From Candidatus Bathyarchaeota archaeon (GTDB taxonomy: Archaea > Thermoproteota > Bathyarchaeia > Bathyarchaeales > Bathycorpusculaceae), in the NCBI GenBank assembly GCA_963827165.1, contig CAWGZR010000013.1:1-63695 (forward strand): DNA of 63,695 bases, written 5' to 3'. Below the pieces are notes generated by a model. It was not told the DNA's origin, did not search any database, and saw nothing but the letters and a program-made list of their open reading frames with translations. Position 1 is the first letter of the stretch. Each line of letters begins with the position of its first letter. The translations under genes were made by a program, and so were the position numbers. Shown piece after piece: positions 4,134 through 63,695 of this stretch.

Positions 4134-5765
4134 TTATTTTGGGCTTTTAGGTGTTTTTTGTTTACTCGCTTTAACTAAGATGGCTGAACAAGTAGCAATC
4201 GCTAAAACCAGTAGCACAACGAATGAGGTTAATTCGGGAATTGTTGGAGTTGGGGTCGGTGTAGGTGTAGTTGTTGGTGTTAGCGTTGGAGTGGGCGTTG
4301 GCGACGCAGTAGGAACTGGCGTTGGCGACGCAGTAGGAACTGGAGTGGGCGTTGGCGTTGGAGTTGGATTCACTGTAATAGAAACAGTATTAGAAGCAAG
4401 AGAAGTAACTGGAGTGGAAGCGCTATCAGTCACCGTACAAGTAACTGTATGTGAAGTTCCAGCGGCAGTGTAAGAATAGCTTGCACTGTTAGTGCCAACT
4501 GCTGTGCCGTCCAGATACCATTGATAGGACAGAGTGCCTGAACCGCCACTGGCTGTTGCAGTGAATGCTTGAACCTCACCAACAGTTAAAGTAAGCGGAC
4601 CAACAGGAGCTATAGTAACAGTCGGAGCAGCGTCTACTGTAACAGAAGTCGCGTTAGAACTCGCTACTGCACCAGTGCTGTCAGTAACTTGAAGTATGAA
4701 GAACCAGGTGCCAGTAGTTGTGGAACTTGTAGTTACAAAGTTGTAGCTCGTTAAAGTTGCGCCGCTAATCGACGAGTAAGAGGAGACGCCGGGAGCCTCA
4801 CTGAACCATTGGTACGTGTAGGGCGAAGCGCCAATCGTTACCGCAGTAGACGTCAAACTGGAAGTTTGACCCTGATCCACCGAGCCAGGCGAAGCAGACA
4901 CAGAGGGAGGAACCAAAATTTGAGAATCTGACATGACTGAGACCGTGTTGGATCCGTAATTGGCTACGAATACTTCGCCTTTACCGGAATCATAAGCTAC
5001 ACCCCAGGGTTCAGTTCCAACGGGCACGGTGGCAACCACGCCGTTGACGCTATCCGATATAACTGAAACCGTGCCAGAACCGTAATTGGCTACGAATACT
5101 TCGCCTTTGCCAGAATCATAAGCATGCATCATGAGGGTTGCTTCCCACGGACACGGTTTTGACGACGGCATTGGTGCTGTCCGATATAACCGAAACCGAG
5201 TTAGACCCGTAATTGGCTACGAATACACCTCGCCTATGCCAGAATCATAAGCCACACCATTGGGTCGGTTCCAACGGGTACGGTGGCAACGATGGTATTG
5301 GTGCTGTCCGATATAACTGAAACCGTGCCAGAACCGTAATTGGCTACGAATACTTCGCCTTTGACCAGAATCATAAGCCACGTTACGGGGACCGCTTCCA
5401 ACAGGTATGGTGGCAACAACGGCGTTGGTGCTGTCCGATATCACCGAAACCGTGTTGGACCCCTCGTTGGCTATGAAGATTTCGCTTTTGCCAGAATCAT
5501 AAGCCGCACTCTCGGGTCCGCTTCCAACAGGTATGGTTGCAACCACGCCGTTAGTGCTGTCCGATATAACTGAAACCGTGCCAGAACCGTAATTGGCTAC
5601 GAATACTTCGCCCATGCCCGAATCATAAGCCACACCTTCGGGTTGACTTCCAACCGTTATCGTGGCGGTTACTCCGGCGGCGTGGACCGAGTTGACTGCT
5701 GACAATGCAAAAGTCATAATGAATAATAAACCTAAAAGCTTCCAAACTTTGGCTTTCATATCCAT
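4134..5765 (-). CDS. YVTN/YncE beta-propeller surface protein with Ig/PKD-like domains, PT linker and PEF-CTERM-like tail; frameshifted around 5130-5370
   Basis: Signal peptide; repeats 'GVAYDSGKGEVFVANYGSGTVSVISDSTN'; IPEL + TM + basic tail. Confidence 0.8.
4930..5660 (-). repeat. Six ~126-bp tandem coding repeats (YVTN blades)
   Basis: GAATCATAAGC-containing unit starts at 4984, 5110, 5239, 5365, 5491 and 5617. Confidence 0.85.
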
Positions 5766-49803: not shown

Positions 49804-52020
49804 ATGGCGCGTTATAGGCAAACTGACGAAATTGTTAAACTGATGGAAACTCCAACATTCATCAGAAACACCAGCATTATTGCCCATGTGGACCACGGGA
49901 AAACTACACTTGCCGACAGTTTGCTTGCAGCGGCAGGAATCATCAGCACCCAAACCGCGGGACAAAAATTGTTTCTTGACTCGTGGGATCTTGAGCAGAA
50001 ACGTCAAATGACCGTTTTCGCCTCAAACGTTAGCTTGGTACACAGCTACAATAATCAAGATTACCTCATCAACCTCATCGACACCCCTGGACACATTGAC
50101 TTTTCAGGCGCAGTAACAAGAAGCCTAAGAGCAGTTGACGGTGCACTTGTCGTTGTAGATGCCGTTGAAGGACCCATGACTCAAACAGAAACCGTTTTGA
50201 TGCAGGCCCTTCGAGAACGCGTGAAACCAATTCTATTCATCAATAAAGTTGACCGCCTAATAAAAGAAATCAAACTAACACCTCAAGAGATCCAAAAGAA
50301 ATTTGCCAAGATCCTCCTCAGAGTAAACACTTTAATTGAGAGGTATGCGCCAAAAGAGCACAAAGAAGACTGGCAAGTCAAAATAGAGGATAGCCGCGTT
50401 GCATTTGGCTCAGCACTCCATAAATGGGGTCTAAATCTTGATCACATGAAAATGAAGAAAGTCACTTTTCAAGACATTATCGACGCATACTCAGGCGACC
50501 CGATAGAGGTTGGAAGAAAAGTTGACGAATTAAGTAAAAGAGCGCCGTTGCCAGAACCGATTCTGGATATGTTCTGCAAACACTTACCTAATCCTTACGA
50601 AGCACAACCATACAGACAACCACAGATTTGGCCAGGAGACATTAACAGTACAACTGGTCAAGGGATGGCAAAAGTTGATCCAAAAGCCCCCCTGCTAATG
50701 TGCATATCAACAATTGAAGTTGACCCACACAGCGGAACAGTTGCAATTGGCAGAATTTTCAGCGGCTCGGTTGAGCGTGGAAAAACGGTCCAACTGCTAA
50801 GCAGTAACCAGAAAGGCACTATTCAACAAGTTTTCATGAGTATGGCAACGGACCGAGTACTCATTGACCGAGTCCCAGCGGGCAACATTGGCGCAATCTC
50901 AGGGTTACCGTCAATACACGTTGGCGAAACCATTGCAGAAGAAGGCGTTGAAGTTCACTCATTCGAAGGCTTAAGATACGTTTCTGACCCAGTCGTAACC
51001 GTAGCTGTTGAACCTGAAGATGTCAAAGACCTGCCGCTCTTCGACAAAGTCATGCATAAGCTCACAACGGAAGATCCTAACCTACATTTCATCATGAACA
51101 AAGAAAGCGGCGAATTTCTCCTCTCAGGCATGGGTGAACTCCATCTTGAAATCACTGCTTACCGCATGCAAGAAGCAGGCTTAAAAGTGAAGCTTAGCAA
51201 GCCAATCGTCATCTACCGAGAAACCATCAGTCACGATTACCGCGGTCCAGCAATTATGGGTAAAAGCCCCAACAAACACAACAAGCTTTGGATAACTATT
51301 GAACGGTTGTCTGAAGAAGTGATTGAAGCAATAAAGTCCGATAAAATTAATGACATGCAAAGCAAAGATGAGAGAACAAAAACCTTGCGGGCTTTAGGAT
51401 GGGAAGCGGACGAAGCAAAAGGAGCAGTGGCTGTAGAAGAAAACTGCATCCTTGTCAACCGTATCCGTGGAAGACAATACGTTGAGGAAATTTTGGACCA
51501 CATTAAAAGTGGATTCCGCGAAGCAGTTCACACGTCACCTTTAGCTAAGGAACCAGCTTACGGCTTAAAAATCAACTTAGAAGACATAGTGCTTCATGAA
51601 GATCCAGTCCACAGGGGACCAGCACAAGCTATTCCGATGACTTGGAGACCAATATACTGCTGCATACTCCTGAGCGATCCAAAAATTCTTGAACCGCTAA
51701 TGAGTTTCGAATGTAAAGTTCCAAGCGAATTCGTCAGCGCAGTAATCACAATGCTAAACAAGAGACGAGGAAAAATCCTTGACATGCCATCGGAAGAAGA
51801 CATGATCACTGTAAAAGCTGAAATGCCAGTTTCCGAAAGCTTCGGTATCGCTGATGAATTGCGAGGTTCAACTTCAGGCAGAGCGTTCTGGGCAACACAA
51901 TTTAGTCGTTGGGCACCAGTTCCAGAGCAAATGCAAGCCGATACCATCAAGAAAATCCGCGAACGCAGAGGACTACCACCTACCCCGCCAAAGCCAGAAG
52001 AATACTTCGAGAAAGAGTAG
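49804..52020 (+). CDS. fusA: Translation elongation factor aEF-2
   Basis: AHVDHGKTT, DTPGH, NKVD, GMGELHLE, diphthamide loop HEDPVHRGPAQ. Confidence 0.97.
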   Translation: MARYRQTDEIVKLMETPTFIRNTSIIAHVDHGKTTLADSLLAAAGIISTQTAGQKLFLDSWDLEQKRQMTVFASNVSLVHSYNNQDYLINLIDTPGHIDFSGAVTRSLRAVDGALVVVDAVEGPMTQTETVLMQALRERVKPILFINKVDRLIKEIKLTPQEIQKKFAKILLRVNTLIERYAPKEHKEDWQVKIEDSRVAFGSALHKWGLNLDHMKMKKVTFQDIIDAYSGDPIEVGRKVDELSKRAPLPEPILDMFCKHLPNPYEAQPYRQPQIWPGDINSTTGQGMAKVDPKAPLLMCISTIEVDPHSGTVAIGRIFSGSVERGKTVQLLSSNQKGTIQQVFMSMATDRVLIDRVPAGNIGAISGLPSIHVGETIAEEGVEVHSFEGLRYVSDPVVTVAVEPEDVKDLPLFDKVMHKLTTEDPNLHFIMNKESGEFLLSGMGELHLEITAYRMQEAGLKVKLSKPIVIYRETISHDYRGPAIMGKSPNKHNKLWITIERLSEEVIEAIKSDKINDMQSKDERTKTLRALGWEADEAKGAVAVEENCILVNRIRGRQYVEEILDHIKSGFREAVHTSPLAKEPAYGLKINLEDIVLHEDPVHRGPAQAIPMTWRPIYCCILLSDPKILEPLMSFECKVPSEFVSAVITMLNKRRGKILDMPSEEDMITVKAEMPVSESFGIADELRGSTSGRAFWATQFSRWAPVPEQMQADTIKKIRERRGLPPTPPKPEEYFEKE

Positions 52021-52224: not shown

Positions 52225-52340
52225 CAACCTGCAGGTACTTCAAGCCCTGAATCAAGAAAGCAACCCAAAACACAAACAACAAAAAATGCAGAGACGGGTT
52301 CGAGGGTAAGGCTTTAATGCAAAAAAGCAATTAACGTTCT

Positions 52341-52946
52341 GTGAGCTTTATGATACTCGGAATTTGCGGGAGCCCTAGAGATCAAGCCACTGAGCATGTC
52401 TTAAAAGAAGCCCTCAAAATGCTCAGCGAGAAAGGATTCGAAACTCAGTTTTGGACTGTGCGTGGAAAATGGGTTGATTTCTGTGCCCACTGCGACTACT
52501 GCCTCACAAACAAGGAATGCGTCGTTCAAGACGACGTTCAAGAACTCTACACCCTGTTAACCGAGGCAAAAGGAATCATTTTTGCTTCGCCCGTCTATAA
52601 CGGCGGAGTAAGCGCCCAAACCAAAGCACTCATGGATCGAACACGCGCGCTAGTCGCAGCGGACAAAAATGTTTTCAAAGGAAAGATCGGGATGGGCATC
52701 GTTGTAGGCGGCGATCGAAACGGCGGACAAGAATTTGCTCTCATGCAGATTCACAGCTTCTACATAATCAACGGAATGATTCCCGTAAGCGGCGGGTTCT
52801 TCGGAGCCAATTTAGGGGCGACTTTCTGGAGCAAAGACACTCTTGACGGCGTAAAAGCGGACGAGGAGGGTTTTAGAAGCTTAAAGAAGACAATTAAAAA
52901 ATTTGCAGCCCAATTGGAAGGGGCACAAGAGAAGCCTAAGGCGTGA
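52341..52946 (+). CDS. Iron-sulfur flavoprotein (flavodoxin family)
   Basis: GSPR, CAHCDYC...C, SPVY, DRNGGQE. Confidence 0.9.
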   Translation: MSFMILGICGSPRDQATEHVLKEALKMLSEKGFETQFWTVRGKWVDFCAHCDYCLTNKECVVQDDVQELYTLLTEAKGIIFASPVYNGGVSAQTKALMDRTRALVAADKNVFKGKIGMGIVVGGDRNGGQEFALMQIHSFYIINGMIPVSGGFFGANLGATFWSKDTLDGVKADEEGFRSLKKTIKKFAAQLEGAQEKPKA

Positions 52947-53539
52947 TTGTTATGGTTGAAAACGTTAAGATTAAGAAGCGTAAGGTTGCTTGGGGAATAA
53001 CGGGTGCAGGGGACAAAATCGCTGAAATCGTCGAAGTCATGAAAGACCTCAAGAAACAGTCTGAGGACAAGGTGGAGATCGACGTGTTTATCTCCAAAGC
53101 AGCCGACACTATGCTCAAATTCTATAGGCTTGAAGACGAAATCAAAAACAACTTCCCAAAAGTAATGGTTGAGGTTAACGCCAACTCACCGTTCCTAGCA
53201 GCTTGGCTTCAAAGTGGCAAATACGAGTTCCTTCTAATAGCACCCTGCTCATCCAACTCAGTTGCTAAGATCGCGAACAGCATAAGCGACACGATGCTCA
53301 CAAACGCAGCCATCATGAGCCTCAAAGCATTCAGACCCGTCTACATCCTCCCAACGGACTACCGGGAAAACGTCGTATCCACGATTCTTCCCAGCGGCAA
53401 AGAAATGAAACTACGAGTACGCAAAGAGGAAGCTGACCAAGTACGAAAACTAGAAGCTATGGAGGACATGCATGTGTTCGAAAGTCCCCAGAAAATAAAA
53501 GAATTCTTTATTAAATGGCTGAAAACCACAATGCCATGA
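52943..53539 (+). CDS. afpA: Archaeoflavoprotein AfpA
   Basis: VAWGITGAGD, ANSPFLA, YEFLLIAP, ILPTD, LRVRKE. Confidence 0.85.
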   Translation: MIVMVENVKIKKRKVAWGITGAGDKIAEIVEVMKDLKKQSEDKVEIDVFISKAADTMLKFYRLEDEIKNNFPKVMVEVNANSPFLAAWLQSGKYEFLLIAPCSSNSVAKIANSISDTMLTNAAIMSLKAFRPVYILPTDYRENVVSTILPSGKEMKLRVRKEEADQVRKLEAMEDMHVFESPQKIKEFFIKWLKTTMP

Positions 53540-53544
53540 ACACG

Positions 53545-53574
53545 AGAAGGCGGGTTACAACCAACAGACCAGCC
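53545..53574 (+). repeat. Short 3'-terminal fragment of the RNase P RNA gene (att-like)
   Basis: AGAAGGCGGGTTACAACCAACAGACCAGCC; direct repeat of 55162-55191 with 2 mismatches. Confidence 0.65.
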
Positions 53575-53645
53575 AACAACTCATTTATTCTGTGTAATTT
53601 TGTTTGGGTTGGTTTTAGTGATTGGAATTTTTAAATAGTTGAATC

Positions 53646-55064
53646 GTGATTAGCATACTTATGGTTCAACTATTCTTCGACAGAGAACAGGAACTGCAAT
53701 TCCTCCAAAAACATTACGAAACCAAAACAGCCGAATTAATCGTCCTTTATGGACGAAGAAGAGTAGGAAAAAGCGAACTCACACTAAATTTCGCCAAAAG
53801 TAAACCCCACATCTATTTCCTAGCTGACCGCCGACCCGAAACCCAACTTATACAAGAGCTAAAGCACGAAATGAGCCGTTACCTGCAGGATGAAAGCTTC
53901 GGGAAACTTGCTTTAAACGATTGGGCTGAGCTTTTCTTGGAATTTACGAAATGGAACAAGAACAATCAAGTGGTAGTAATCATAGATGAATTTCCTGTCC
54001 TTATAGAGTCAAATCATGCGGTCACCTCGATTTTCCAGAAAATTTGGGACCAAAACCTCAAAAACACCCATACAATGCTCATTCTGCTAGGTTCATCCAT
54101 AGCAATGATGGAAACAGAAGTTCTTAACTACAAAAGCCCGCTCTATGGCAGAAGAACGGGACAATGGAAGCTGGAACCCCTCAAACTGACAGAAACAAAA
54201 CCGTTTTTCCCAAAATATGACATCGAAATGCTGGTACATGTCTACGGCTGCTTAGGTGGTGTTCCCGCTTACCTTCAAAAATTCAATGCACAAGTTGGGT
54301 TTTGGGAAAACGTGGAGGAAAAAATCCTTGCAAAAGGAGAGTTTCTTTATGAAGAGGCAGATTTTCTCCTACGAGAAGAACTGCGCGAGCCTCGCAACTA
54401 TGCAGCGATTTTGCAGGCAATAGCACTGGGTGCAACAACCTATGGGGAAATTGTTAACGAAACAGGCTTGGAGCGGAGCATGCTTTCAAAATACCTCAGT
54501 GTGCTGGAGGAGCTTACTTTTACTCAGCGAGTTTACCCCGTGGGTTCAAAGGTTAAGCCCAGAAAAGGCCAATACGGCATAGCTGATAATTACTTGAATT
54601 TCTGGTTCAAGTACGTTTTTGCGAATAGGATAGACCTTGAAGCTGGAAACACCACAAGCGTCCTAAACAAAATTCGCAAAGACTACAATAATTACCTTGG
54701 TCATGCGTTTGAGCAAATTGTGTTTGATCTCTTAAAAGAAGCACAGAGAAACCGTATGCTTCCATTTACCTTTTCTGAAATTGGGAAATGGTGGTACAAA
54801 GATACTGAAGTTGACGCCATAGCGATTGACGAGGGGTCCCGAACAGCAACGTTTCTTGAAACAAAATGGAGCACCATAGGAAGAAGAGACTGCCAAAGAA
54901 TTTTAGAACGACTGAAGGAGAAGTCAGAACAGTTTCGCTGGAACCGTGAAAAAGAAAACTACGGAATCATTGCGAAACGAATTGAGGATAAAAAACAGCT
55001 ACGTGACCAAGGCTACATCGCTTTAGATTTGGAAGACTTTAAACAACTACCTGAAAATCGTTAA
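53646..55064 (+). CDS. Archaeal ATPase (AAA + wHTH + DUF234/PD-(D/E)XK)
   Basis: FFDRE.EL, YGRRRVGKS, IDEFP, SPLYGRRT, FWFKY, EVDAIA...ETKW. Confidence 0.9.
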   Translation: MISILMVQLFFDREQELQFLQKHYETKTAELIVLYGRRRVGKSELTLNFAKSKPHIYFLADRRPETQLIQELKHEMSRYLQDESFGKLALNDWAELFLEFTKWNKNNQVVVIIDEFPVLIESNHAVTSIFQKIWDQNLKNTHTMLILLGSSIAMMETEVLNYKSPLYGRRTGQWKLEPLKLTETKPFFPKYDIEMLVHVYGCLGGVPAYLQKFNAQVGFWENVEEKILAKGEFLYEEADFLLREELREPRNYAAILQAIALGATTYGEIVNETGLERSMLSKYLSVLEELTFTQRVYPVGSKVKPRKGQYGIADNYLNFWFKYVFANRIDLEAGNTTSVLNKIRKDYNNYLGHAFEQIVFDLLKEAQRNRMLPFTFSEIGKWWYKDTEVDAIAIDEGSRTATFLETKWSTIGRRDCQRILERLKEKSEQFRWNREKENYGIIAKRIEDKKQLRDQGYIALDLEDFKQLPENR

Positions 55065-55076
55065 TACCGCAATTAA

Positions 55077-55191
55077 GTAGCTCGTCTAAGGGTTGAAGAC
55101 TGCGACTACCCATGCTGAATCATAGGCGCGGGTAGCCCGATTAGCCGAATGCCACAATAACAGAAGGCGGGTTACAGCCAACACACCAGCC
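55077..55191 (+). ncRNA. rnpB: RNase P RNA gene, 3' part only
   Basis: CGGGTAGCCCGATTAGCCGAATG and AACAGAAGGCGGGTTA match the conserved archaeal CR-IV/CR-V segments; upstream hairpin GTAGCTCGTCT...AGACTGCGACTAC; 5' half absent. Confidence 0.7.
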
Positions 55192-55216
55192 TATTTTACT
55201 AATACACCAGCCTTGT

Positions 55217-56502
55217 TTACTCATTGCGTTTTTTCGCCTTCCTAAATAGCATAATACCTTGAGGGGTAGTGACAACATACTGCCAAGCTTGTTCGATCAA
55301 TTCGCCGGCTTCTTTTGCATCTTTAGCGGTTGCGTGATGGTAGTTTTCTGCTTCATCATCAATGGGTACTAAATGAGTATAGACTAAGGTGCTGTTTATG
55401 TTGCGGTGGCCTAGTACCTCTTTAACGTGAAGAATGTTTCTTGTCATGGCGTATTCTTTTGTAGCTTTGAAGTGCCTTAGAAGTGAAACCTTATTTGTTT
55501 TAGTCGTGGGTTCTGTAATTTGATTGCTAAGGCGTGTTTTTGTCGGTCATATTTCCAGCGAAAAGCGTTAAGATTGCCATTTCCAAATATGTAGTCGTTT
55601 GTTTTCGGTAGCATTAAGAGCCTTGCCATTAATCTGCTTGAGAGTTTTGCTTGTCTTGGGTTGCCGTGTTTTTCAGCTACGCATTTGAGGGTAAAGTTTT
55701 CTTCGTCTAGGTCGGTCCATTTGCATTGCCATAATTCGCCTATTCTAAAGCCTGTTTCTTTGAGTGCAAGCACGCAAGTTCCTACTTTTTTGCTGCAACC
55801 GGCTACTAGTGCATCGACTTCTTTTTCCAGCGGTACAAACGGTAAAGATTTTTTTGTTTCATAGTATGGGGGTTGCCACTGGATTTTTAGCATCTCGGCA
55901 TAGCTGTCATAGGCGCTTACAAAGTTCTGCTTGTATCCGTTGCTCCATTTTTCGTTTGTAGCAAGAATCGTTCTAACTGCTTCAGGATCATGCAAATTAA
56001 CGCCGCTTTTCTGGGAAAGATACCTTAGCAGTTTAACCCTTGTTTTTATCGTTGCGTCACTAAACTTGCCCTGTTTTTTTAGATACCACATGAAATCTAC
56101 GATTTCGCCTTGAATTGCTGTTTGGTGTGTTTGGTTTCGGCTAATTGCCACAACATCGGTTTCTTGTTGTGGTTCCAATTTTTTCGCCTTATCCTGTAGG
56201 ATTGCGCTTAATCGGTAATCGCTATTTGTCCTTGACAATTTAAAAGGGTTTGGTTCACTGAATCTAACGTTACAATCCTTGCAATAGTAACGCTGTAACG
56301 TTAAGCCTTCTGCAGTTTGCCTAGTTCCAGCTTTATCAAAAGGACCGACAGAACTACATTCGGGGCAGCTTAGATGTTGAGGTTCCTTTGGTGGATGATG
56401 CCCTGTAGGCTCATCTATCTTCTCATCAAGTGCATTCTCTAAGATGACCGGTGGAGCAGTAATTGGGATGCTATCCTGTTTATGAATTTCAACCTCGACC
56501 AT
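55217..56502 (-). CDS. Tyrosine recombinase/integrase with N-terminal Zn finger; 1-nt frameshift near 55480
   Basis: CPEC...CKDC; ETGFRIGE; FH-x-LRH across the shift; LGHRNINSTLVY. Confidence 0.9.
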
Positions 56503-56586
56503 GAGCTTTAAGAAGCCTCCTCTGGCGGCTTTCAGTCTGGTTTATCCATCCTTGGCACTCGCATGCCCAACTGCTGTCTGTTTTGA

Positions 56587-59007
56587 TTAATTGGGGGTCG
56601 CCTCCATAGCTAACGAAGGGTGTTGGCAATCTTCTGTGTGGTAGCGTCCACAATCACCACAAACTCGTGAGGGCGAAAGCTTTAGCGGTTCAGGTTTAAC
56701 GGGTTTAACGGATTTAACGGGTTTAACGCTCTCAGGATTGAACTCTTTACTCTCTGTTGTAAGTTGCTTTGGCTCTTTGCCCTGCAAACTTGGGGGTAGG
56801 GGTTCATTTGTGACTCCGTTAACTTCGTTAACCCCGTTAAAGTCAGATAGCTTTGTGAATCCTTCGGTGACTTTGTATGCTTCTATGAGTTTAGGCGTAG
56901 GGTAATGTCCACGCTTAGAGGTCAGTAATCCTTCCGTCTTTAGCGTTGCTATTAGAGGTCTTAACTGATTGTTTCCTGCTAAGCCGAATTTTGTCATCAA
57001 CTCGTCGTTTGTAGTGTGGTTTTGAGTCACAAGGAAGCAAAGAATCTCTGTCAGGTTCTCGATGGGATTTTTGGCAAGTTGCCCTTTTACCTTTCGCATT
57101 AGGTCTTCTACGTCTTCCGAGGTAATTTTTTCAAATTTGTGGTCTTGCGCTAATATTCCTAAGCCAGCGTTTGTGTATTCTTCAGTCAAGAAGTCAACTA
57201 TTGCCTTAACGTGTTCATCAGTGACTGTAACGGTTGTGTAGTCGTCGTTTGTTGATAATGTACAATGGGCAAGTGCGACGCTTAAGCGTGCAATTTTATA
57301 TTTCACGTCTATGCTGACGAGCGGTATAGCTTCCAAGAAGAACTTGTTGTAAAGTTCCGTTGACTGTTGCAGTAGTAGGTTTATGGCTATGTCTGTCCAT
57401 TCAACTTTTGCTTTATTGCTCCATGCCCACTTTAGGACTTCCGAGAACTGTTCAAGCGCTGGATTGGGTTCTTGTGTTATCTTTCTGTTGATCATTTGAG
57501 GAGTTACGTCTCGTTGGTCGGAGAATACGCATAGATCTATTCTGGCGATGCTTGTGGGATCTAGGATTGTTGACGTAGCCCGGATGGGATGGAGAAAACT
57601 GCCAAGACTCTTGGTGCTATAACGGTCTGCTTCAGGGTCAACTGCATTGTAGATTCTAATTTGCCTGGTTCTTGCGTTGGTTGTGTTCTTGGCTGCTTTT
57701 GCTATGGATAATATGCCGCTTCTTTCAGCTTCAGCTAGGGCTGCCCAACATGAAGCGCTCAGCTTGTGTGCTCCGTCAACTGCTAAGAGTTTGCGATCCA
57801 TTAGGGGTAGAAATCCCCAATCGATGAACCATCCTTCTTTTTCTGTCTGGGTAGCTGTACCTGTTAAGCCAACCGTGGAGGCTGTTTCTGCGGAGATGAC
57901 GAGTCCTGCCTTGAGGAGCACTGAGAGTTTCTTGACTGTTTCGCTTTTTCCGGTGGTTGTGTCGCCTATTACTGCTATTATTGACCAGCCGCGTTGCAGT
58001 TCACCGTTAAACTTTACTTGAATTGGCGAAAAATAACCTAGAAGGGCTGCTTTAGTGATGTTTTGCCTACCGACAACATGACTGTATAGCTCAAAGTTGT
58101 CCACTATCCATTTCAGGCGTTCACTGACACTTTTGTCTTTAAACTCTTGCTGAATTATGGATAGTTTGTTTGTGTCAAAGCTTGAGTTGTCTTCTGGGAA
58201 TTCAACGGCGTAGCCGAGCATGGTTGTTTTTTGTGTTCGGGGGTTGGGTAAGGGTATGCCAGTTAGCTTTACTAGAGTGCTTGGTTGGAAAGTTAATGGA
58301 GTGTCGGAGACAACGTATAGGTCAAGGTGCTTGTATTCATAGCCTTTATCATCGACTATTTTGTCTCCCAATTTATCAAGCGTAAAAACTTCAGGGCGCA
58401 CTCTTAGGGCGTAAACGGTTCTATGTTTTAGTTCCTTTCTGATGATTACCTTAGTGTCTGGATATATGGTTTTTAGGTACTTGTTTAGTCTGCCGTTTTT
58501 TGTTTCCTCAGACACTGCAACTAAGCTAACGTTGAGGGGGTCCTCGATTTTTATGCTTGGGGCTACAACGTAGGATTCTTCGCTTTGTTCCTTTATGTCT
58601 GCTCTTATTTGGGATGGAATGCTGTAGGCGGTGCTTGTACTTGAAATTACAGCTTGGATAGTTACTGGTTTGCAGATTAGGTCGGGATGCTCAATTTCGT
58701 TTATGTGTTGCAGAATTGCTGGGCTATCGTCTGATTCTATTGGGCGTGACGAAGTCCGAGTTGTTTCTGAGTTTGGGGATCGCTGGATTGGGGCTGCAGT
58801 TTGGTGACCACTTTCGCAAATGTACCAGTTCGTTTGTATGTCATCCTTGTGGTGCTCTGTTACTGGTTTTTTGCATGTTGGGCATAGCATAAGCAACTTT
58901 GGGGGTGCCTGAGAGTTGTTATTGTTCTCGCTATCAACTGCTGAAACGTTAGGCGTTGGCTGTTCCTGCGCTTCTTGTTCTGTTATAATGCCTGTTTCTT
59001 GAGTCAT
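56587..59007 (-). CDS. MCM-like replicative helicase of an integrative element
   Basis: Walker A GDTTTGKSE, STVGLTG, LAVDG, LAEAERSGILSIAKA, IARIDL; Zn ribbons at both ends; probable start 59007. Confidence 0.8.
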   Translation of the reverse strand: MTQETGIITEQEAQEQPTPNVSAVDSENNNNSQAPPKLLMLCPTCKKPVTEHHKDDIQTNWYICESGHQTAAPIQRSPNSETTRTSSRPIESDDSPAILQHINEIEHPDLICKPVTIQAVISSTSTAYSIPSQIRADIKEQSEESYVVAPSIKIEDPLNVSLVAVSEETKNGRLNKYLKTIYPDTKVIIRKELKHRTVYALRVRPEVFTLDKLGDKIVDDKGYEYKHLDLYVVSDTPLTFQPSTLVKLTGIPLPNPRTQKTTMLGYAVEFPEDNSSFDTNKLSIIQQEFKDKSVSERLKWIVDNFELYSHVVGRQNITKAALLGYFSPIQVKFNGELQRGWSIIAVIGDTTTGKSETVKKLSVLLKAGLVISAETASTVGLTGTATQTEKEGWFIDWGFLPLMDRKLLAVDGAHKLSASCWAALAEAERSGILSIAKAAKNTTNARTRQIRIYNAVDPEADRYSTKSLGSFLHPIRATSTILDPTSIARIDLCVFSDQRDVTPQMINRKITQEPNPALEQFSEVLKWAWSNKAKVEWTDIAINLLLQQSTELYNKFFLEAIPLVSIDVKYKIARLSVALAHCTLSTNDDYTTVTVTDEHVKAIVDFLTEEYTNAGLGILAQDHKFEKITSEDVEDLMRKVKGQLAKNPIENLTEILCFLVTQNHTTNDELMTKFGLAGNNQLRPLIATLKTEGLLTSKRGHYPTPKLIEAYKVTEGFTKLSDFNGVNEVNGVTNEPLPPSLQGKEPKQLTTESKEFNPESVKPVKSVKPVKPEPLKLSPSRVCGDCGRYHTEDCQHPSLAMEATPN

Positions 59008-59473
59008 GGTTTTGTTACCTCTTCTTCGCCGCGTTTTATCCAGAGACGCCCTGTACTGCTTGTTTGGTAAACAATGTACAGCTCTGGGAAGTCTTCTCAA
59101 GGGTTTTAAGGGCCGCAAAAAGTCAACTTGTGATCCTCTCAATACTAAGCCATGAGTCACTGAGACTTTTTGCAGACTATCGATTAGTTCCTTTTCAGGG
59201 GACTTTTTAGATGGGTAAACTGTCATCTTTTCTTACTCCTTTTCTTGAGCTATTCGGTTTAAACACCTGGCAAGCATACGGTTTAGGAGGCATCGAAATA
59301 GGGTTTGAGTGGCGCGTTTTGAATGGTTTTTTGCCATGCTTTGGCTCGGCTGCTTTTTCATTGCTTTCTAATTATCTATGGGCGAGTTTTCTCGTGCTGT
59401 TTTTCACATCTATTATAATATCGCATGTTTTATTATGAACTGATAGTTAGACTATTAGTAGAGGTTTAAAGAC

Positions 59474-60311
59474 TTGAAAGGCGTTAAGAAATCGCCGAAA
59501 GACGAAAACGACGTTTGGCTATTCCTCTATAAGAGGGACGAAGTGAGTTTTTCGGATTGGTTAAACGGCTTTGTTGATTCAGGGCTGATGTCAAAGTCAA
59601 CTTGGTTGAAATACAAATTGGCGCTCGAAAAAGAAGGCAAAGTTAAGAAAAGAATTAGTGAAAAGACCAACACATCAGTTTATTATACACCCCCAGAGAA
59701 ACGAGAGGAACTGCAAGCCTTAGCTAAGAGAGCAGAGTTTCTTTTTGATTTAGAGGCGCTCACTCCAAAAGAGCAAATCAACAAGCTAACCAAAGAACGG
59801 GATAGATACAAGCGAATAAATCGCATTCAAGAACTGGAGAATTGCCCTTTACCAGCCAGAGCGGTCGTAAGAAATTGGAAGACTTTGGCTTTAAAATCGA
59901 GGAGTGGTATGATGAAAGCTGTAAGGACGAAGCGATGGTTTCACAATTCCTGATAACCTTCAACATGTCTACTGGGCTAACGACATAGCCGAGGAGTTGT
60001 CAAACGCCGACAAAATTGAAATCAAACTTATCCCAGCAGAAGAGTATAGCGAATTCGAATTGCACTTTAAATTAAAGGCGGATGGATGGATGCCTTTGGT
60101 TTGCAAACCAATTAAAGGAAGAGGAATAATTGGTGCTTGGAAAGAACTTTTAACTTTGCTAAAAGAGGATTTTGAGGATAGATGGCTTCAATGGGAAGAA
60201 CGATTTGAGCTAAGTAAAGAGGAGTGGGCTGTCGTGGTCAATCAGTCCGGAGATGATGGAGCATGTCGGTGTACCTCAAGAAATCGATTATTTCATTTCT
60301 CAATTTGTTAA
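59474..60311 (+). CDS. wHTH-containing hypothetical protein; two ORFs, possibly one frameshifted gene
   Basis: Divergent from the helicase; 'MSKSTWLKYKLALEKEGKV' resembles a wHTH. Confidence 0.45.
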
Positions 60312-61080
60312 CAATAAGGGGAAAAATCTTTGAGGAGCTTTTTCCATTTTCTGGTTGTGTTTCTGTCTGCGCTGAATATTTCTGCTATTTTTCGTTCGGT
60401 TAATCTTTTGCCCTTGAGTAGACCCTTGTTTTCTAACTCGTCCTGAGTTAGAGTGAATATGGCTGAAAAAAGGTGCTCAAGCTGCTTATCAGTAACTGGT
60501 CCATTATGTTTTAAGTAGTCTTCGACTTTGTAAGTTAACCTACCTATTGTAAAAGCTGAAACGCCCATATCTAACATTTTAAGGCTATTTTGCTCAACTA
60601 ACTGCTTAAAAATCCTCTCGCATTGGTTCATGGGATCTCTTTCTTTCTCTTTCAAAGCTTTGGCAACTTTCTCTGCAGTTGATGCAGAGTAAACGAAGTG
60701 CCCTTCAGTCTTCGCAAACGCAACTGCTTTCCCCACCAAAATATTCCGTCATCCTAGTTCTTCGTTATTAGCCCACGTTGTAGGCATTATCCGGTAGCCG
60801 TCGGGTTTGCTGCAGGTATTGCATTTGTAGATAACCACTCTAAAGAATGATAAATCGTCAAACAGAGGCTTCTCGGCTATGTCCTGTGTTCCACAGCTTG
60901 TACATTTACGTTTTGCGAAGACTTGTTCCTCGATGTTCTCGCTGACTTCTTTTAGCGCTATGGAGGTGATTTCGTGACCGCAGTTATCACATATAGAGGT
61001 GCGGGGGTTGGATAGTTTTCCATATACTCAGTTGAACCACAATCGGGACAGAATTTAAATTCAAAGTTTTTTTCGGTCAT
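60308..61080 (-). CDS. Zn-ribbon protein with C-terminal HTH, frameshifted
   Basis: CPDCGS, CDNCG, CTSCG and CNTC motifs; C-terminal 'TERKIAEIFSADRNTTRKW'. Confidence 0.5.
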
Positions 61081-61310
61081 TAGTTTACTTCCTTTAAGTT
61101 TGCTTTAAAATAGTTAACTGATAAGCTATCAAGAAATAGCTTGAAAACAGAGGATACGATCGCTCCTCGATACAAACCCATTTTTCACCCAAAAGCTGTT
61201 AAATTTCATCCAAGCGAGTTAGCCATTAGCTATTCAGTGACGGGCGCCTATAGGTGAGAGCTTATTAATCAAGCAGAATAAATAGCTCTGGCTATAGAAG
61301 GGGTAAAGTC

Positions 61311-62889
61311 ACGGTTAAACAACTAACACAAGAGAAAAAAGAAGCAAAAACCTCAAACGGCGCCAACTTGGGTTTTGAGGCAAAGTTATGGACGACTGCG
61401 GATAAACTACGCAACAACATGGATGCGGCTGAGTACAAACATGTCGTTTTAGGGCTTATTTTCCTCAAGTACATTTCCGATGCTTTTAAAGAAGTTTATA
61501 ATGAGTTGAAAGAATGAAAAACTGGCTGACCCTGAAGACGTAGATGAGTATAAGGTCCGAAATGTCTTTTGGGTTCCAGCTAAGGCAAGCTGGGATTTTC
61601 TGCAAAAGAACGCGAAACAACCAACAATTGGAGTTACTGTCGATGATGCCATGGATGCGATCGAACGGGAGAACAGCAGTCTAAAAGGCGTTTTACCAAA
61701 GAATTATGCCCGTGAAAGCCTTGACAAGCAGAGGCTTGGAGAATTAATCGATTTAGTCGGCACGATCGGCTTAGGCGATCGGGAAAGCCGAAGCAAAGAT
61801 GTCCTCGGCAGAGTTTACGAGTATTTTCTGGGTCAGTTTGCTGATGCAGAGGGCAAAAAAGGCGGGCAATTCTACACTCCCAAAAGCATAGTGCAACTCC
61901 TCGTCGCTATGATTGAACCCTTCAAAGGCAGAGTCTTTGACCCCTGCTGCGGCAGCGGCGGCATGTTCATACAAAGCGAAAAATTCGTAGCCGCCCACCA
62001 AGGAAGAATCGACGACATACACATCTTCGGGCAAGAATCAAACCAGACCACTTGGCGCCTCTGCAAAATGAACCTAGCCATAAGAGGCATAGAATCCAAA
62101 GAAGTAAGATGGAACAACGAAGGCAGCTTCCTAAACGACCTCACAAAGATTTGAAAGCAGACTACCTTCTTGCTAACCCGCCATTTAATGATTCTGACTG
62201 GAAAGGCGAAATGCTAAGAGAAGACATCCGATGGAAGTACGCGTTCCACCCGCTGGAAACGCCAACTTTGCGTGGGTACAACACTTCATTCACCATTTAG
62301 CACCCCATGGCGTAGCAGGTTTTGTGCTTGCAAACGGTTCCATGAGCTCCAACCAATCAAATGAAGGAGAAATACGCAAGAACATAACCGAAGCCGACTT
62401 AGTAGACTGCATGGTTGCTTTACCTTCACAATTATTCTATAATACTATGATTCAGCCTGCCTATGGTTCATAGCCAGAGATAAACAAAACAACAAATTCC
62501 GAGATCGTAGGGGTGAAGTGCTATTTATTGATGCCCGAAAGCTTGGCATAATGATAGACAGAAGACACCGAGAACTAAACCAAGAGGACATTAAAAAAAT
62601 ATGCCGATACCTACCATGCATGGAGAGGTGAACCCATAAACGGGCAAACAGTCGAATACCGAGATATTGCCGGGTTCTGCAAAACAGTGAAACTTGAAGA
62701 AATAAGAAAACAAACACATATACTAACACCCGGGCGCTTTGTTGGCAATGAGGAAGAAGTGGATGACTTGGAAGAATTCGAAGAAAAAATGAGGCGACTA
62801 ACTAGTGAACTTGCCAAACAAATCAATCAAAGCCGACTACTTGATGAAGAAATAACGCGGAATCTTAGCGAATTGGTTATGATTTCTGA
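61311..62889 (+). pseudogene. hsdM: Type I RM methyltransferase HsdM with several frameshifts (possibly sequencing errors)
   Basis: [52 protein letters not shown] spread over several frames. Confidence 0.85.
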
Positions 62890-63695
62890 AAAAGTCAATT
62901 TTAAGAAAACGGAAATAGGATACTTGCCATTTGATTGGTCAGTTAAGGAAATGGGTGCGATCGCTTTGTATTTAATCGAGGCATACCGCCCGAATATTCC
63001 AAAATTGGTCATAAGGGTTTGAATCAAAAATGCATTAGAAACGGGAGGGTGACATTAACCGATGTCAAATTCCATAAAATTAGTAAACGATTTACTGAAG
63101 AGAAGAGAATACAAAGAAACGATATATTGATAAATTCTACTGGCGTAGGTACGCTTGGTAGAGCAGCAAATATCCGAAACAATCCTTCTGATGCGGTATT
63201 AGCAGATTCTCACATTACTTAGCCAGAATCGACCCAAAGATTGCTGATCCTTTATTTGTTTCCTATTACTTGAACTCAATCCAATCTGCAATTGAAGCTA
63301 TGGGTCAGGGAACTTCAGGTCAACAAGAACTATCTCGCAACCTTGTTAAGGGCATCAAAATTCCATATCCCAATATCATTGAACAAAAGCTAATAGCTAA
63401 ACTACTTTATTCTTTAGATGAAAAATTTGATCTAAACAGCCAAAATAACCACGCTCTCGAGGCTGTTGGTGAGGCTGTTTTTAAGCGTTGGTTTGTTGAT
63501 TTTGGGTTCCCAACCAAGAAGGCAAGCCCTATAAATCATCAGGCGGAGAAATGGTCTACAACCAAGAGTTAGGAAAAGAAATTCCATCGGGATGGCAGCT
63601 AACGACTCTTGAAAAGGTTGCAGAGTTTACAAGAGGTTTTTCTTATAATGGTTTGGAGAAGAGCACCATAGATGGTGATTTGGTGTTTATGACTC
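62879..63695 (+). pseudogene. hsdS: Type I RM specificity subunit HsdS, frameshifted and truncated by the window edge
   Basis: FKKTEIG..P.DW, INSTGVGTLGR, EQKLIA..L.SLD, FKRWFVDF, ELGKEIPSGW. Confidence 0.8.

Follow-up and report, generated by a model that had tools for sequence, protein, structure and literature searches.

That mobile elements integrate at the 3' ends of tRNA and tmRNA genes is well established. Two other well known arrangements combine a recombinase with arrays of smaller units. Integrons hold small cassettes with attC hairpins beside a tyrosine recombinase, and streptococcal ICEs form accretion arrays with cis-mobilizable elements that are att-flanked and have no integrase.

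Islander-type genomic islands and proviruses occupy tRNA and tmRNA genes at their 3' ends (PMC4383910). Cryptic integrated elements of Thaumarchaeota encode MCM helicases and are in some cases integrated in tandem; their targets include tRNA genes, intergenic regions and, in protein-coding genes, the 3' end (PMC6563490). In the SSV-type ("suicidal") archaeal integrases the att site lies inside the integrase's own ORF (PMC7253208). The terms "RNase P" and "rnpB" do not occur in the main texts of the reviews, PMC6563490 included. The accessible portion of a large provirus survey assigns 13.5% of RNA targets to "ncRNA", the kinds being unnamed there. Full-text literature searches yielded no report in which RNase P RNA or its gene rnpB serves as att site, and the large island catalogues may hold one.

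The window analyzed here is the whole 63,695-nucleotide stretch of one contig from a Candidatus Bathyarchaeota archaeon, and it carries copies of the rnpB 3' end beside a tyrosine integrase gene. The integrase clade resembles the Islander-type systems in that the integrase lies beside its target, an element-borne 3' end would regenerate the gene, a displaced fragment is found at the other end, and tandem arrays occur. The clade departs from those systems in targeting the RNase P ribozyme gene instead of one for tRNA or tmRNA, in having att sites of at least three length classes at the one gene, and in the secondary position of the window copy within a protein-coding gene. Like the Thaumarchaeota elements (PMC6563490), the window element is a small archaeal one in which a tyrosine integrase is combined with a recruited MCM helicase; the host phylum differs. 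At rnpB there is also a second integrase clade, co-directional with the gene and sharing 52-64% identity with the window type, whose ORF runs on through att in the SSV manner. In contrast, the window-type att is 25 nt downstream of the integrase stop codon, so integration leaves the integrase unsplit.

The locus also has features of the two array types. As with cis-mobilizable elements, an ATPase and a toxin-antitoxin unit are single att-bounded cassettes in tandem with an integrase-bearing element; unlike in the streptococcal arrays, the resident integrase is broken and mobilization is putative. As in integrons, a tyrosine recombinase neighbours small arrayed cassettes whose cargo is defence-like or of toxin-antitoxin type. 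However, where integrons have attC hairpins this locus has repeats that directly copy the end of an RNA gene, and the integron-integrase model TIGR02249 (NCBIfam) reached 46.7 bits (cut-off 265). Integration here is of the tRNA/tmRNA type, with rnpB as an apparently new target. Regular use of an essential ribozyme gene would add a class of safe harbour.

Copies of the rnpB 3' end in the window

The sequence at 55124-55191, labeled att68, is a 100% match to C3:171357-171424 on another contig of the same genome (blastn over query positions 240-302, by eye out to 68 nt), and it carries the species-specific dinucleotide of the host rnpB. A preliminary description, made from the window sequence alone, had recognized this rnpB copy correctly but gave it a length of about 115 nt, the 3' third of the gene. 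In a DNA search with 119 genomes of the genus all rnpB matches to the window began at query position 1585, which is window position 55124. To the left of this point the sole rnpB-like piece is a CTACCC helix strand, set off by an 11-nt insertion (by eye). No Rfam match at the gathering score was obtained in the window. The covariance-model match that the preliminary description anticipated at 55077-55191 was found only in weak form, at 55125-55179 with RF00373 (20.3 bits, E 0.006; gathering score 84), and so low a score marks att68 as a fragment and not a gene.

The right ~30 nt of att68 are the core used by the window integrase type. The whole of att68 exceeds the ~27-30-nt core of this type in L145, L148, G076 and the displaced copy on C3, and its length suggests that it may be a hybrid of two att classes. 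Set against its complete identity to the host rnpB, the window integrase is only ~80% identical to the integrase copy on C3, which calls for either a recent arrival or gene conversion.

A second copy, 28/30 identical, lies at 53545-53574 (E 2e-4 against the 3.1-Mb genome; repeat family D4), as had been described. With one gap it reaches 53530-53574 (84% over 45 nt) and so shares the final 10 nt of the flavoprotein ORF. When up to three mismatches were allowed, a 29-nt pattern matched at these two copies only, and two matches arose in none of 100 shuffles. The two copies bracket exactly one ORF, that of the ATPase, and att68 lies close to the integrase stop codon (ORF end at 55217), both as first reported. 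A 9-bp echo noted earlier is also real and is part of two 21-nt tandem repeats (family D1) whose arrangement is likewise seen 3' of rnpB on C3 and in G015; the repeats are possibly integrase-binding sites. Blast and pattern searches found no further att copy in the window past hsdS. An rnpB-like 25-nt match at C10:115960-115984 was taken as chance, its flanks reading as ordinary coding DNA.

Table 1. Features of the window around the rnpB-derived repeats
Feature	Position	Strand	Remarks
aEF-2	49804-52020	+	Left chromosomal flank, core gene; Pfam GTP_EFTU, EFG domains
FMN reductase	52341-52946	+	Core flank; Pfam FMN_red 114 bits
Archaeoflavoprotein AfpA	52943-53539	+	NCBIfam TIGR02699 238.9 bits (cut-off 192.45)
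Left att	53530-53574	+	Degenerate copy of rnpB 3' end, core 53545-53574; left junction of ectopic array
ATPase cassette	53646-55064	+	Pfam ATPase_2 98.7 bits, DUF234 96.3 bits
att68	55124-55191	+	Exact copy of final 68 nt of host rnpB
Two 21-nt tandem repeats	55180-55200, 55201-55221	+	86% alike; span att end and integrase stop codon
Tyrosine integrase	55217-56502	-	N-terminal zinc ribbon; N part 55477-56502, C part 55217-55477
MCM-like helicase	56587-59226	-	879 aa; Pfam MCM P-loop 62.7 bits
Small ORFs	59211-61300	.	Within element; Pfam/PADLOC: none, or sub-threshold matches only
Type I restriction-modification fragments	61651-63572	+	hsdM piece 61651-62154, hsdS piece 63270-63572

The ATPase cassette has no integrase of its own. 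It resembles a defence gene (PADLOC PDC-S27, 176 bits, E 3e-52) and is a candidate on that ground. No att copies were found near ATPase homologues in four relatives' loci.

Compared with G118 and G079, the integrase gene has a net deletion of 1 nt directly ahead of the HxLRH motif, and this deletion splits it. By eye, the motifs ETGFRIGEL and F-H precede the break and LRH, LGHRN and VYTHL follow it; the catalytic R, HxxR, H and nucleophile Y are therefore not within one reading frame, and as assembled the gene is a pseudogene. Scored with Phage_integrase (PF00589; cut-off 27.1), the split parts reach 19.6 and 16.9 bits, compared with 49.6 and 65.6 bits for intact homologues of 87 and 72% identity. 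The MCM-like helicase is presumed to be the replication module of the element, and the pair of integrase and MCM genes also adjoins rnpB in G079. Pfam N6_Mtase and Methylase_S and PADLOC MTase_I identified the restriction-modification pieces, which are 81% identical to C12:68346-69957. The window contig stops inside the island.

rnpB as the target of the integrase clade

The intact host rnpB, which the preliminary description could not place, is full-length at C3:171118-171419 (RF00373, 194.8 bits). The gene upstream of it is likewise beside rnpB in 8/12 relatives' loci. On its 3' side lies the decayed remnant of a paralogous integrase, 80.5% identical to the window integrase over 810 nt, and beyond this a displaced copy of the rnpB 3' end at C3:173935-173993.

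Homologous integrases adjoin full-length rnpB in other genomes as well. Among 119 genomes of the genus, att and integrase follow rnpB in 10 (G118, G122, G079, G107, G015, G061, G076, G046, G121 and G080); nine of these rnpB genes are full-length or nearly so and one is cut by a contig end. RF00373 scored above the gathering score beside the integrase in 12/13 loci of the genome collection, a count that is not independent of the previous one because the same collection was used. On metagenome contigs rnpB was present in eight of the ten convergent-type loci that keep their 3' flank, the other two having only the ~27-nt core. Complete elements between core repeats are found in G076 (5.3 kb, with an intact 386-aa integrase that matches Phage_integrase at 65.6 bits) and in G107 (5.5 kb). 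Extra downstream repeats occur in 6/13 loci, the C3 locus included. The att length classes at rnpB are ~23-32, 51-65 and 94-128 nt, or, as a round figure, ~60-125 nt for the classes other than the core of the window integrase type.

The preliminary description had allowed that homologues might instead be consistently tRNA-adjacent. No tRNA gene was found in any of the 34 loci with integrases of at least 47% identity (best segment), which together with the adjacency to rnpB identifies rnpB as the target of the integrase clade. Among relatives of 28-35% identity a tRNA gene lies within ~100 nt of the integrase match in three of four loci; the genes occupied by these more distant relatives are those of tRNA-Met and tRNA-Arg. 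The change of target is traceable inside one protein family. An integrase directly beside a regenerated full-length rnpB is a property of the clade but not of the window locus.

An ectopic array at the 3' end of afpA

The left flank of the window array is chromosomal. Its aEF-2 has 87-97% amino acid identity to that in relatives' loci, and the FMN reductase gene and afpA are adjacent in 29/29 such loci, none of which has an att or the ATPase after afpA. In the window the final ~10 nt of afpA (53530-53539) are replaced by att-derived sequence: the protein ends ...WLKTTMP*, whereas relatives end ...WLKT-I/V-K-x*, for example ...WLKTIKS* (by eye). Around CACAAT, the native end of afpA is similar to rnpB.

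The other side of the array is on a different contig. In 4/27 relatives' loci compared, afpA and a methyltransferase gene are direct neighbours, and this native neighbour maps to C9:806-1423. The adjacency in relatives makes the event at afpA a simple insertion. In a soil-metagenome contig the 68-nt repeat is followed at its end by the initial 24 nt of C9, so the 3' copy sought beyond hsdS, absent from the window itself, is placed just before the start of C9. The degenerate att on the right, at C9:~745-772, matches weakly and with gaps (score 37). Of the att, the 3' part is at the left junction and the 5' part at the right one, which is what the opening of a circle within an att would produce. 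The window locus is accordingly described here as an ectopic tandem array at the 3' end of afpA and not as rnpB. It reads, in order, afpA, degenerate att, ATPase cassette, att68, frameshifted integrase and MCM helicase, small ORFs and restriction-modification remnants. After an assembly gap it probably continues with an att, a PIN/MazE toxin-antitoxin cassette, a degenerate att and the native methyltransferase gene on C9. The tandem units divided by att copies bear out the tandem insertions proposed in the preliminary description.

A simpler state of the same site is present in G120, a genome reached via the toxin-antitoxin cassette and not via the 29-locus afpA comparison. It has afpA (90% amino acid identity), a degenerate att, the toxin-antitoxin cassette (82% nucleotide identity) and the methyltransferase gene, with nothing else there. 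The degenerate att is homologous to the window left junction, with the same indels, and the G120 state looks like an intermediate of the array. In an unbiased set of 29 toxin-antitoxin cassette loci, seven have rnpB or an att copy within 1.5 kb.

Origin of the array

We think it likely that 55124-55191 is a mobile-element att in an ectopic array, and that the integrase clade recombines such att sites with the rnpB 3' end. The integrase would recombine the element-borne site with the end of rnpB, and the element would bring a replacement 3' end, so that the ribozyme gene remains whole. The displaced rnpB end would persist at the element's other end as a direct repeat, and repeated integration events would build tandem arrays. 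At afpA, the first event would have been insertion of an att-flanked toxin-antitoxin cassette into the last, rnpB-like bases of the gene. The att of this cassette would then have served as a decoy rnpB end at which ordinary site-specific recombination captured first or last, in tandem, both the ATPase unit and the element with the integrase. With the window integrase inactivated the array is probably fixed, unless a paralogue acts in trans.

The array could instead have arisen at the true rnpB, a piece of it later moving beside afpA by illegitimate recombination or chromosomal rearrangement and not through the integrase. The identity of att68 to the host rnpB, dinucleotide included, would fit such a transfer, as would the degeneracy of both end junctions and the partial rnpB 3' fragments found off the rnpB-bearing contig in 8/10 relatives (chosen for having two matches). 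Nevertheless, we judge it unlikely, since the afpA and methyltransferase flanks are directly adjacent in relatives, the divided att parts fit a circle opening in att, the native afpA end is itself rnpB-like, and in G120 the same position is occupied by a small cassette with att flanks.

More doubtful still is a mis-join of the contig at the 68-nt repeat, by which 55192-63695 would follow rnpB or another att and the ATPase-att68 segment would run into the toxin-antitoxin cassette on C9. An independent short-read contig spans the left junction without a single difference. The linkage of ATPase, att68 and integrase has the assembled contig as its sole source: no short-read contig was found to bridge the 68-nt repeat, which in short-read contigs has at least three left and at least three right continuations, one of them into C9:1. 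Against a mis-join, two other copies of the repeat are resolved consistently, the C3 copy leading into its own distinct, 80%-identical integrase remnant, and the depth of run X1 is even over 52.7-57.7 kb, contig depth being a weak measure. Run X1 leaves ~57.8-61.4 kb uncovered and is uninformative there.

That the window locus is rnpB itself with tandem insertions, its 5' half lost or outside the window as the preliminary description supposed, is suggested by an att order and integrase position that mimic the junction of a target gene and an integrated element, but can be dismissed, because a full-length rnpB stands in conserved synteny on C3, rnpB similarity ends sharply at 55124 in all genus comparisons, and leftward lie the ATPase gene and core genes, with a methyltransferase gene and not rnpB as the neighbour in relatives. 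The earlier identification of rnpB as target thus holds for the integrase clade and fails for this locus, where rnpB never stood; the supposedly missing 5' half is explained by att68 being element-borne in the ectopic array and not a truncated gene.

Logan contigs from public runs, which cannot show absence, gave neither a circular form nor an empty site, and no joint at att. Joints 62295->62771 and 62591->62690 were discounted, their sides being just 21-24 nt. Viral-contig candidates for a free viral or plasmid form comprised three loci that match zinc-ribbon residues 41-85 only, and they are not integrase relatives.

The window suggests that a transported att copy can turn into a secondary integration site. 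It also raises the question of how RNase P RNA tolerates a terminal helix strand swapped for element-borne sequence. For uncultured Bathyarchaeia, rnpB is a practical spot at which to seek mobile elements and defence-rich variable regions. We raise a broader idea as speculation: the rnpB 3' end of Bathyarchaeia might be a cassette platform at which several integrase clades and att classes stack single-gene units bounded by rnpB ends, and from which att-flanked units may seed decoy rnpB sites elsewhere, an integron-like gathering of defence genes. Candidate units for such a platform are the PIN/MazE toxin-antitoxin pair and the PDC-S27-like ATPase.

Copies of the rnpB 3' end and the genes beside them

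The genome (3.13 Mb in 14 contigs, the 63,695-bp window being contig C13) carries its real rnpB on contig C3. Since the same upstream gene adjoins rnpB in 8 of 12 relatives' loci, the C3 gene stands in its native place. No family reached its gathering score in an Rfam scan of the window; a sensitive scan placed RNaseP_arch, covering the conserved 3' region, at the start of the sequence that we call att68. With the C3 gene and its flanks as blastn query against the genome, C3 sequence from 171357 onward aligned with the window from 55124 onward at 80-83% identity over 645-810 nt, and identity was complete across the first 68 nt. The preliminary description had given about 115 nt of rnpB, a length not confirmed: in a DNA search of 119 genus genomes all rnpB matches start at 55124. 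The second copy that it placed at 53545 was recovered. Its "9-bp echo" belongs to a 21-nt tandem repeat, as the second of the two units. A search with a 29-nt pattern, at most three mismatches being allowed, matched both copy sites and nowhere else, and two matches occurred in 0 of 100 shuffles. Coordinates are collected in the table.

Coordinates of features in the window, on other contigs of the same genome (C) and at loci of relatives (L)
Feature	Position	Remark
rnpB	C3:171118-171419	194.8 bits
RNaseP_arch, sensitive scan	window 55125-55179	20.3 bits, E 0.006
att68	window 55124-55191	copy of rnpB 3' end
left att	window 53530-53574	one gap, 84% of 45 nt
left att, core	window 53545-53574	28/30
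21-nt tandem repeat	window 55180-55200, 55201-55221	
ATPase ORF	window 53646-55064	PADLOC PDC-S27, 176 bits
integrase, two ORFs	window 55477-56502 and 55217-55477	
9-nt repeat	window 56695-56728	~3.5 units
19-nt inverted repeat	window 52243-52261 / 59568-59586	95% complementary
type I restriction-modification fragments	window 60696-63695; C12:68346-70687	81% identity over 1.6 kb
PIN toxin, MazE-type antitoxin	C9:1-745	68 bits, 33.8 bits
rnpB-like sequence	C9:~745-772	likeness to rnpB ~190-243
methyltransferase	C9:806-1423	
co-directional integrase clade, loci	L117:2850-4100; L070 (G003):800-2000 and 4700-5480	
tRNA sites, 28-35% integrases	L178:2376-2454; L183 and L184:3975-4053	
duplicated afpA codons	L052:3318-3434 (G003)	

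As the preliminary description held, one gene lies between the two main copies, a single ORF encoding an ATPase that matches a PADLOC phage-defence candidate. ATPase homologues in relatives (~70% nt identity) are found elsewhere, and no att copies accompany them. The integrase beyond att68 is split in two: relative to its intact homologues in the relatives G118 and G079 it has lost a net 1 nt between F-H and LRH, outside homopolymer runs, which may be true decay or an assembly error. The G118 homologue (427-430 aa) scores 49.6 bits with Pfam Phage_integrase, and its closest solved structure is XerA (5hxy, E 1e-7). The integrase has a zinc ribbon at its N-terminus and is adjoined by an 879-aa MCM-like helicase. 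At its 3' end the helicase ORF contains a repeated 9-nt unit, TTTAACGGG, one unit of which is missing at 56694 in one metagenome contig. On C3, a decayed integrase paralogue directly follows the intact rnpB, with a displaced copy of the rnpB end 2.5 kb farther.

The rnpB 3' end as target of an integrase clade

The 3' end of rnpB is the target of the clade to which the window integrase belongs, whose members converge with rnpB and have att just beyond their stop codon. Homologous integrases adjoin rnpB as a contiguous att and integrase block 3' of the gene in 10 of the 119 genus genomes; nine of these have a complete or almost complete rnpB, and in the tenth, G061, the contig end cuts it; remnants of the block occur in G014 and others, and in G079 an MCM gene also adjoins the integrase. 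In a genome-collection scan, not independent because the collection overlaps the genus genomes, 12 of 13 loci had RF00373 above gathering score beside the integrase (8 convergent, 4 co-directional). True integrase relatives were found at 42 loci on metagenome contigs. Among the ten convergent-type loci that keep their 3' flank, eight have rnpB (seven full-length, one cut by the contig end) and two (L145, L148) have the ~27-nt core alone, preceded by unrelated DNA; most co-directional loci begin within rnpB or come after it.

Adjacency to tRNA genes would be the alternative, and ARAGORN detected no tRNA gene in 34 loci of integrase relatives with at least 47% identity (best segment). Among relatives of 28-35% identity, three of four loci had a tRNA-Met or tRNA-Arg no more than ~100 nt from the integrase match. 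Ancestors of the rnpB-specific clade may have targeted tRNA genes.

Another integrase clade, with 52-64% identity to the window type, is also found at rnpB; its genes are co-directional with rnpB and encode no N-terminal zinc ribbon. The integrase frame continues through att, and in G003 the displaced copy is preceded by a short ORF that enters att in the integrase's exit frame, which suggests an SSV-type integrase, split on integration.

Two elements are complete. That of G076 (5.3 kb) comprises an intact 386-aa integrase, a 555-aa ORF without family, an HTH protein and then a core repeat; that of G107 is 5.5 kb. Downstream rnpB-end repeats were present in 6 of 13 loci checked, including the C3 locus, and in further loci picked for having two hits. 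Their lengths form about three classes (23-32, 51-65 and 94-128 nt). Of 10 relatives picked for two hits, 8 have rnpB on one contig and a partial rnpB 3' fragment (51-128 nt) on another, with no window-type integrase beside the fragment (L122, L127, L129, L132, L134, L136, L138, L140). These fragments could be ectopic att sites, large-element ends or rearrangement products.

Full-text literature searches found no paper naming rnpB as an att site, and an earlier catalogue may list it. RNase P is absent from the main text of two reviews, on archaeal integrases and integrated elements; in its available text, a provirus survey reports "ncRNA" targets, unnamed there. We rate rnpB integration as a new variant within the tRNA/tmRNA-type integration system.

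The afpA locus and the toxin-antitoxin cassette

The array is preceded by aEF-2, an FMN reductase and the archaeoflavoprotein AfpA. The reductase-afpA pair was found in all 29 relatives' loci, none with att or the ATPase 3' of afpA. The last ~10 nt of the afpA ORF fall within the rnpB-like block, and the protein ends in ...WLKTTMP* versus ...WLKT-I/V-K-x* in the relatives compared (e.g. ...WLKTIKS*). In G003 the last 39 afpA codons are duplicated 1.2 kb 3' of the gene, without rnpB-like sequence; elements of another kind may also target the afpA 3' end. The 19-nt inverted repeat between the spacer upstream of the FMN reductase and the element interior may be due to chance.

The gene after afpA maps to the C9 methyltransferase in 4 of 27 relatives' loci compared, so the C13 end probably adjoins the C9 start, with the island spanning the gap. 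The restriction-modification repeat at the contig end, shared with C12, may be the reason for the assembly break. C9 opens with the toxin-antitoxin cassette. One public soil-metagenome contig matches the window as far as 55191 and continues with the opening 24 nt of C9, placing an att copy immediately before C9:1; after the cassette, weak gapped likeness to rnpB would mark the right-hand end of the island. None of the assembled contigs compared bridges the 68-nt repeat, and none showed excision or a circular form.

The cassette occurs in 38 of the 119 genus genomes, and in 7 of 29 fetched loci rnpB or a copy of att is no more than 1.5 kb away. A full rnpB precedes the cassette by 27 nt in G047, and the order in G126 is att, cassette, att. 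One of the 29, G120, has the cassette directly 3' of afpA, in the order FMN reductase, afpA (90% aa), degenerate rnpB-like block, cassette (82% nt), second degenerate block, methyltransferase (65% aa). Its first block has the same indels as the left att. We take G120 as the state before either the ATPase unit or the integrase element had arrived.

Proposed mechanism

From this anatomy and the established behaviour of tyrosine integrases, we infer that the element's att would recombine with the rnpB 3' end. The gene would stay whole through the element-borne copy of its end, as the score of the C3 gene would indicate, and the far repeat would be the displaced rnpB end. The native afpA end is rnpB-like around CACAAT, a likeness through which a toxin-antitoxin circle flanked by att could have inserted off target; later units would then have used the 28/30 core of that circle as their secondary target. 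att68 exceeds the usual core length of the window-type integrase and may be a hybrid, its ATPase side from a long-class att and its integrase side from the short core.
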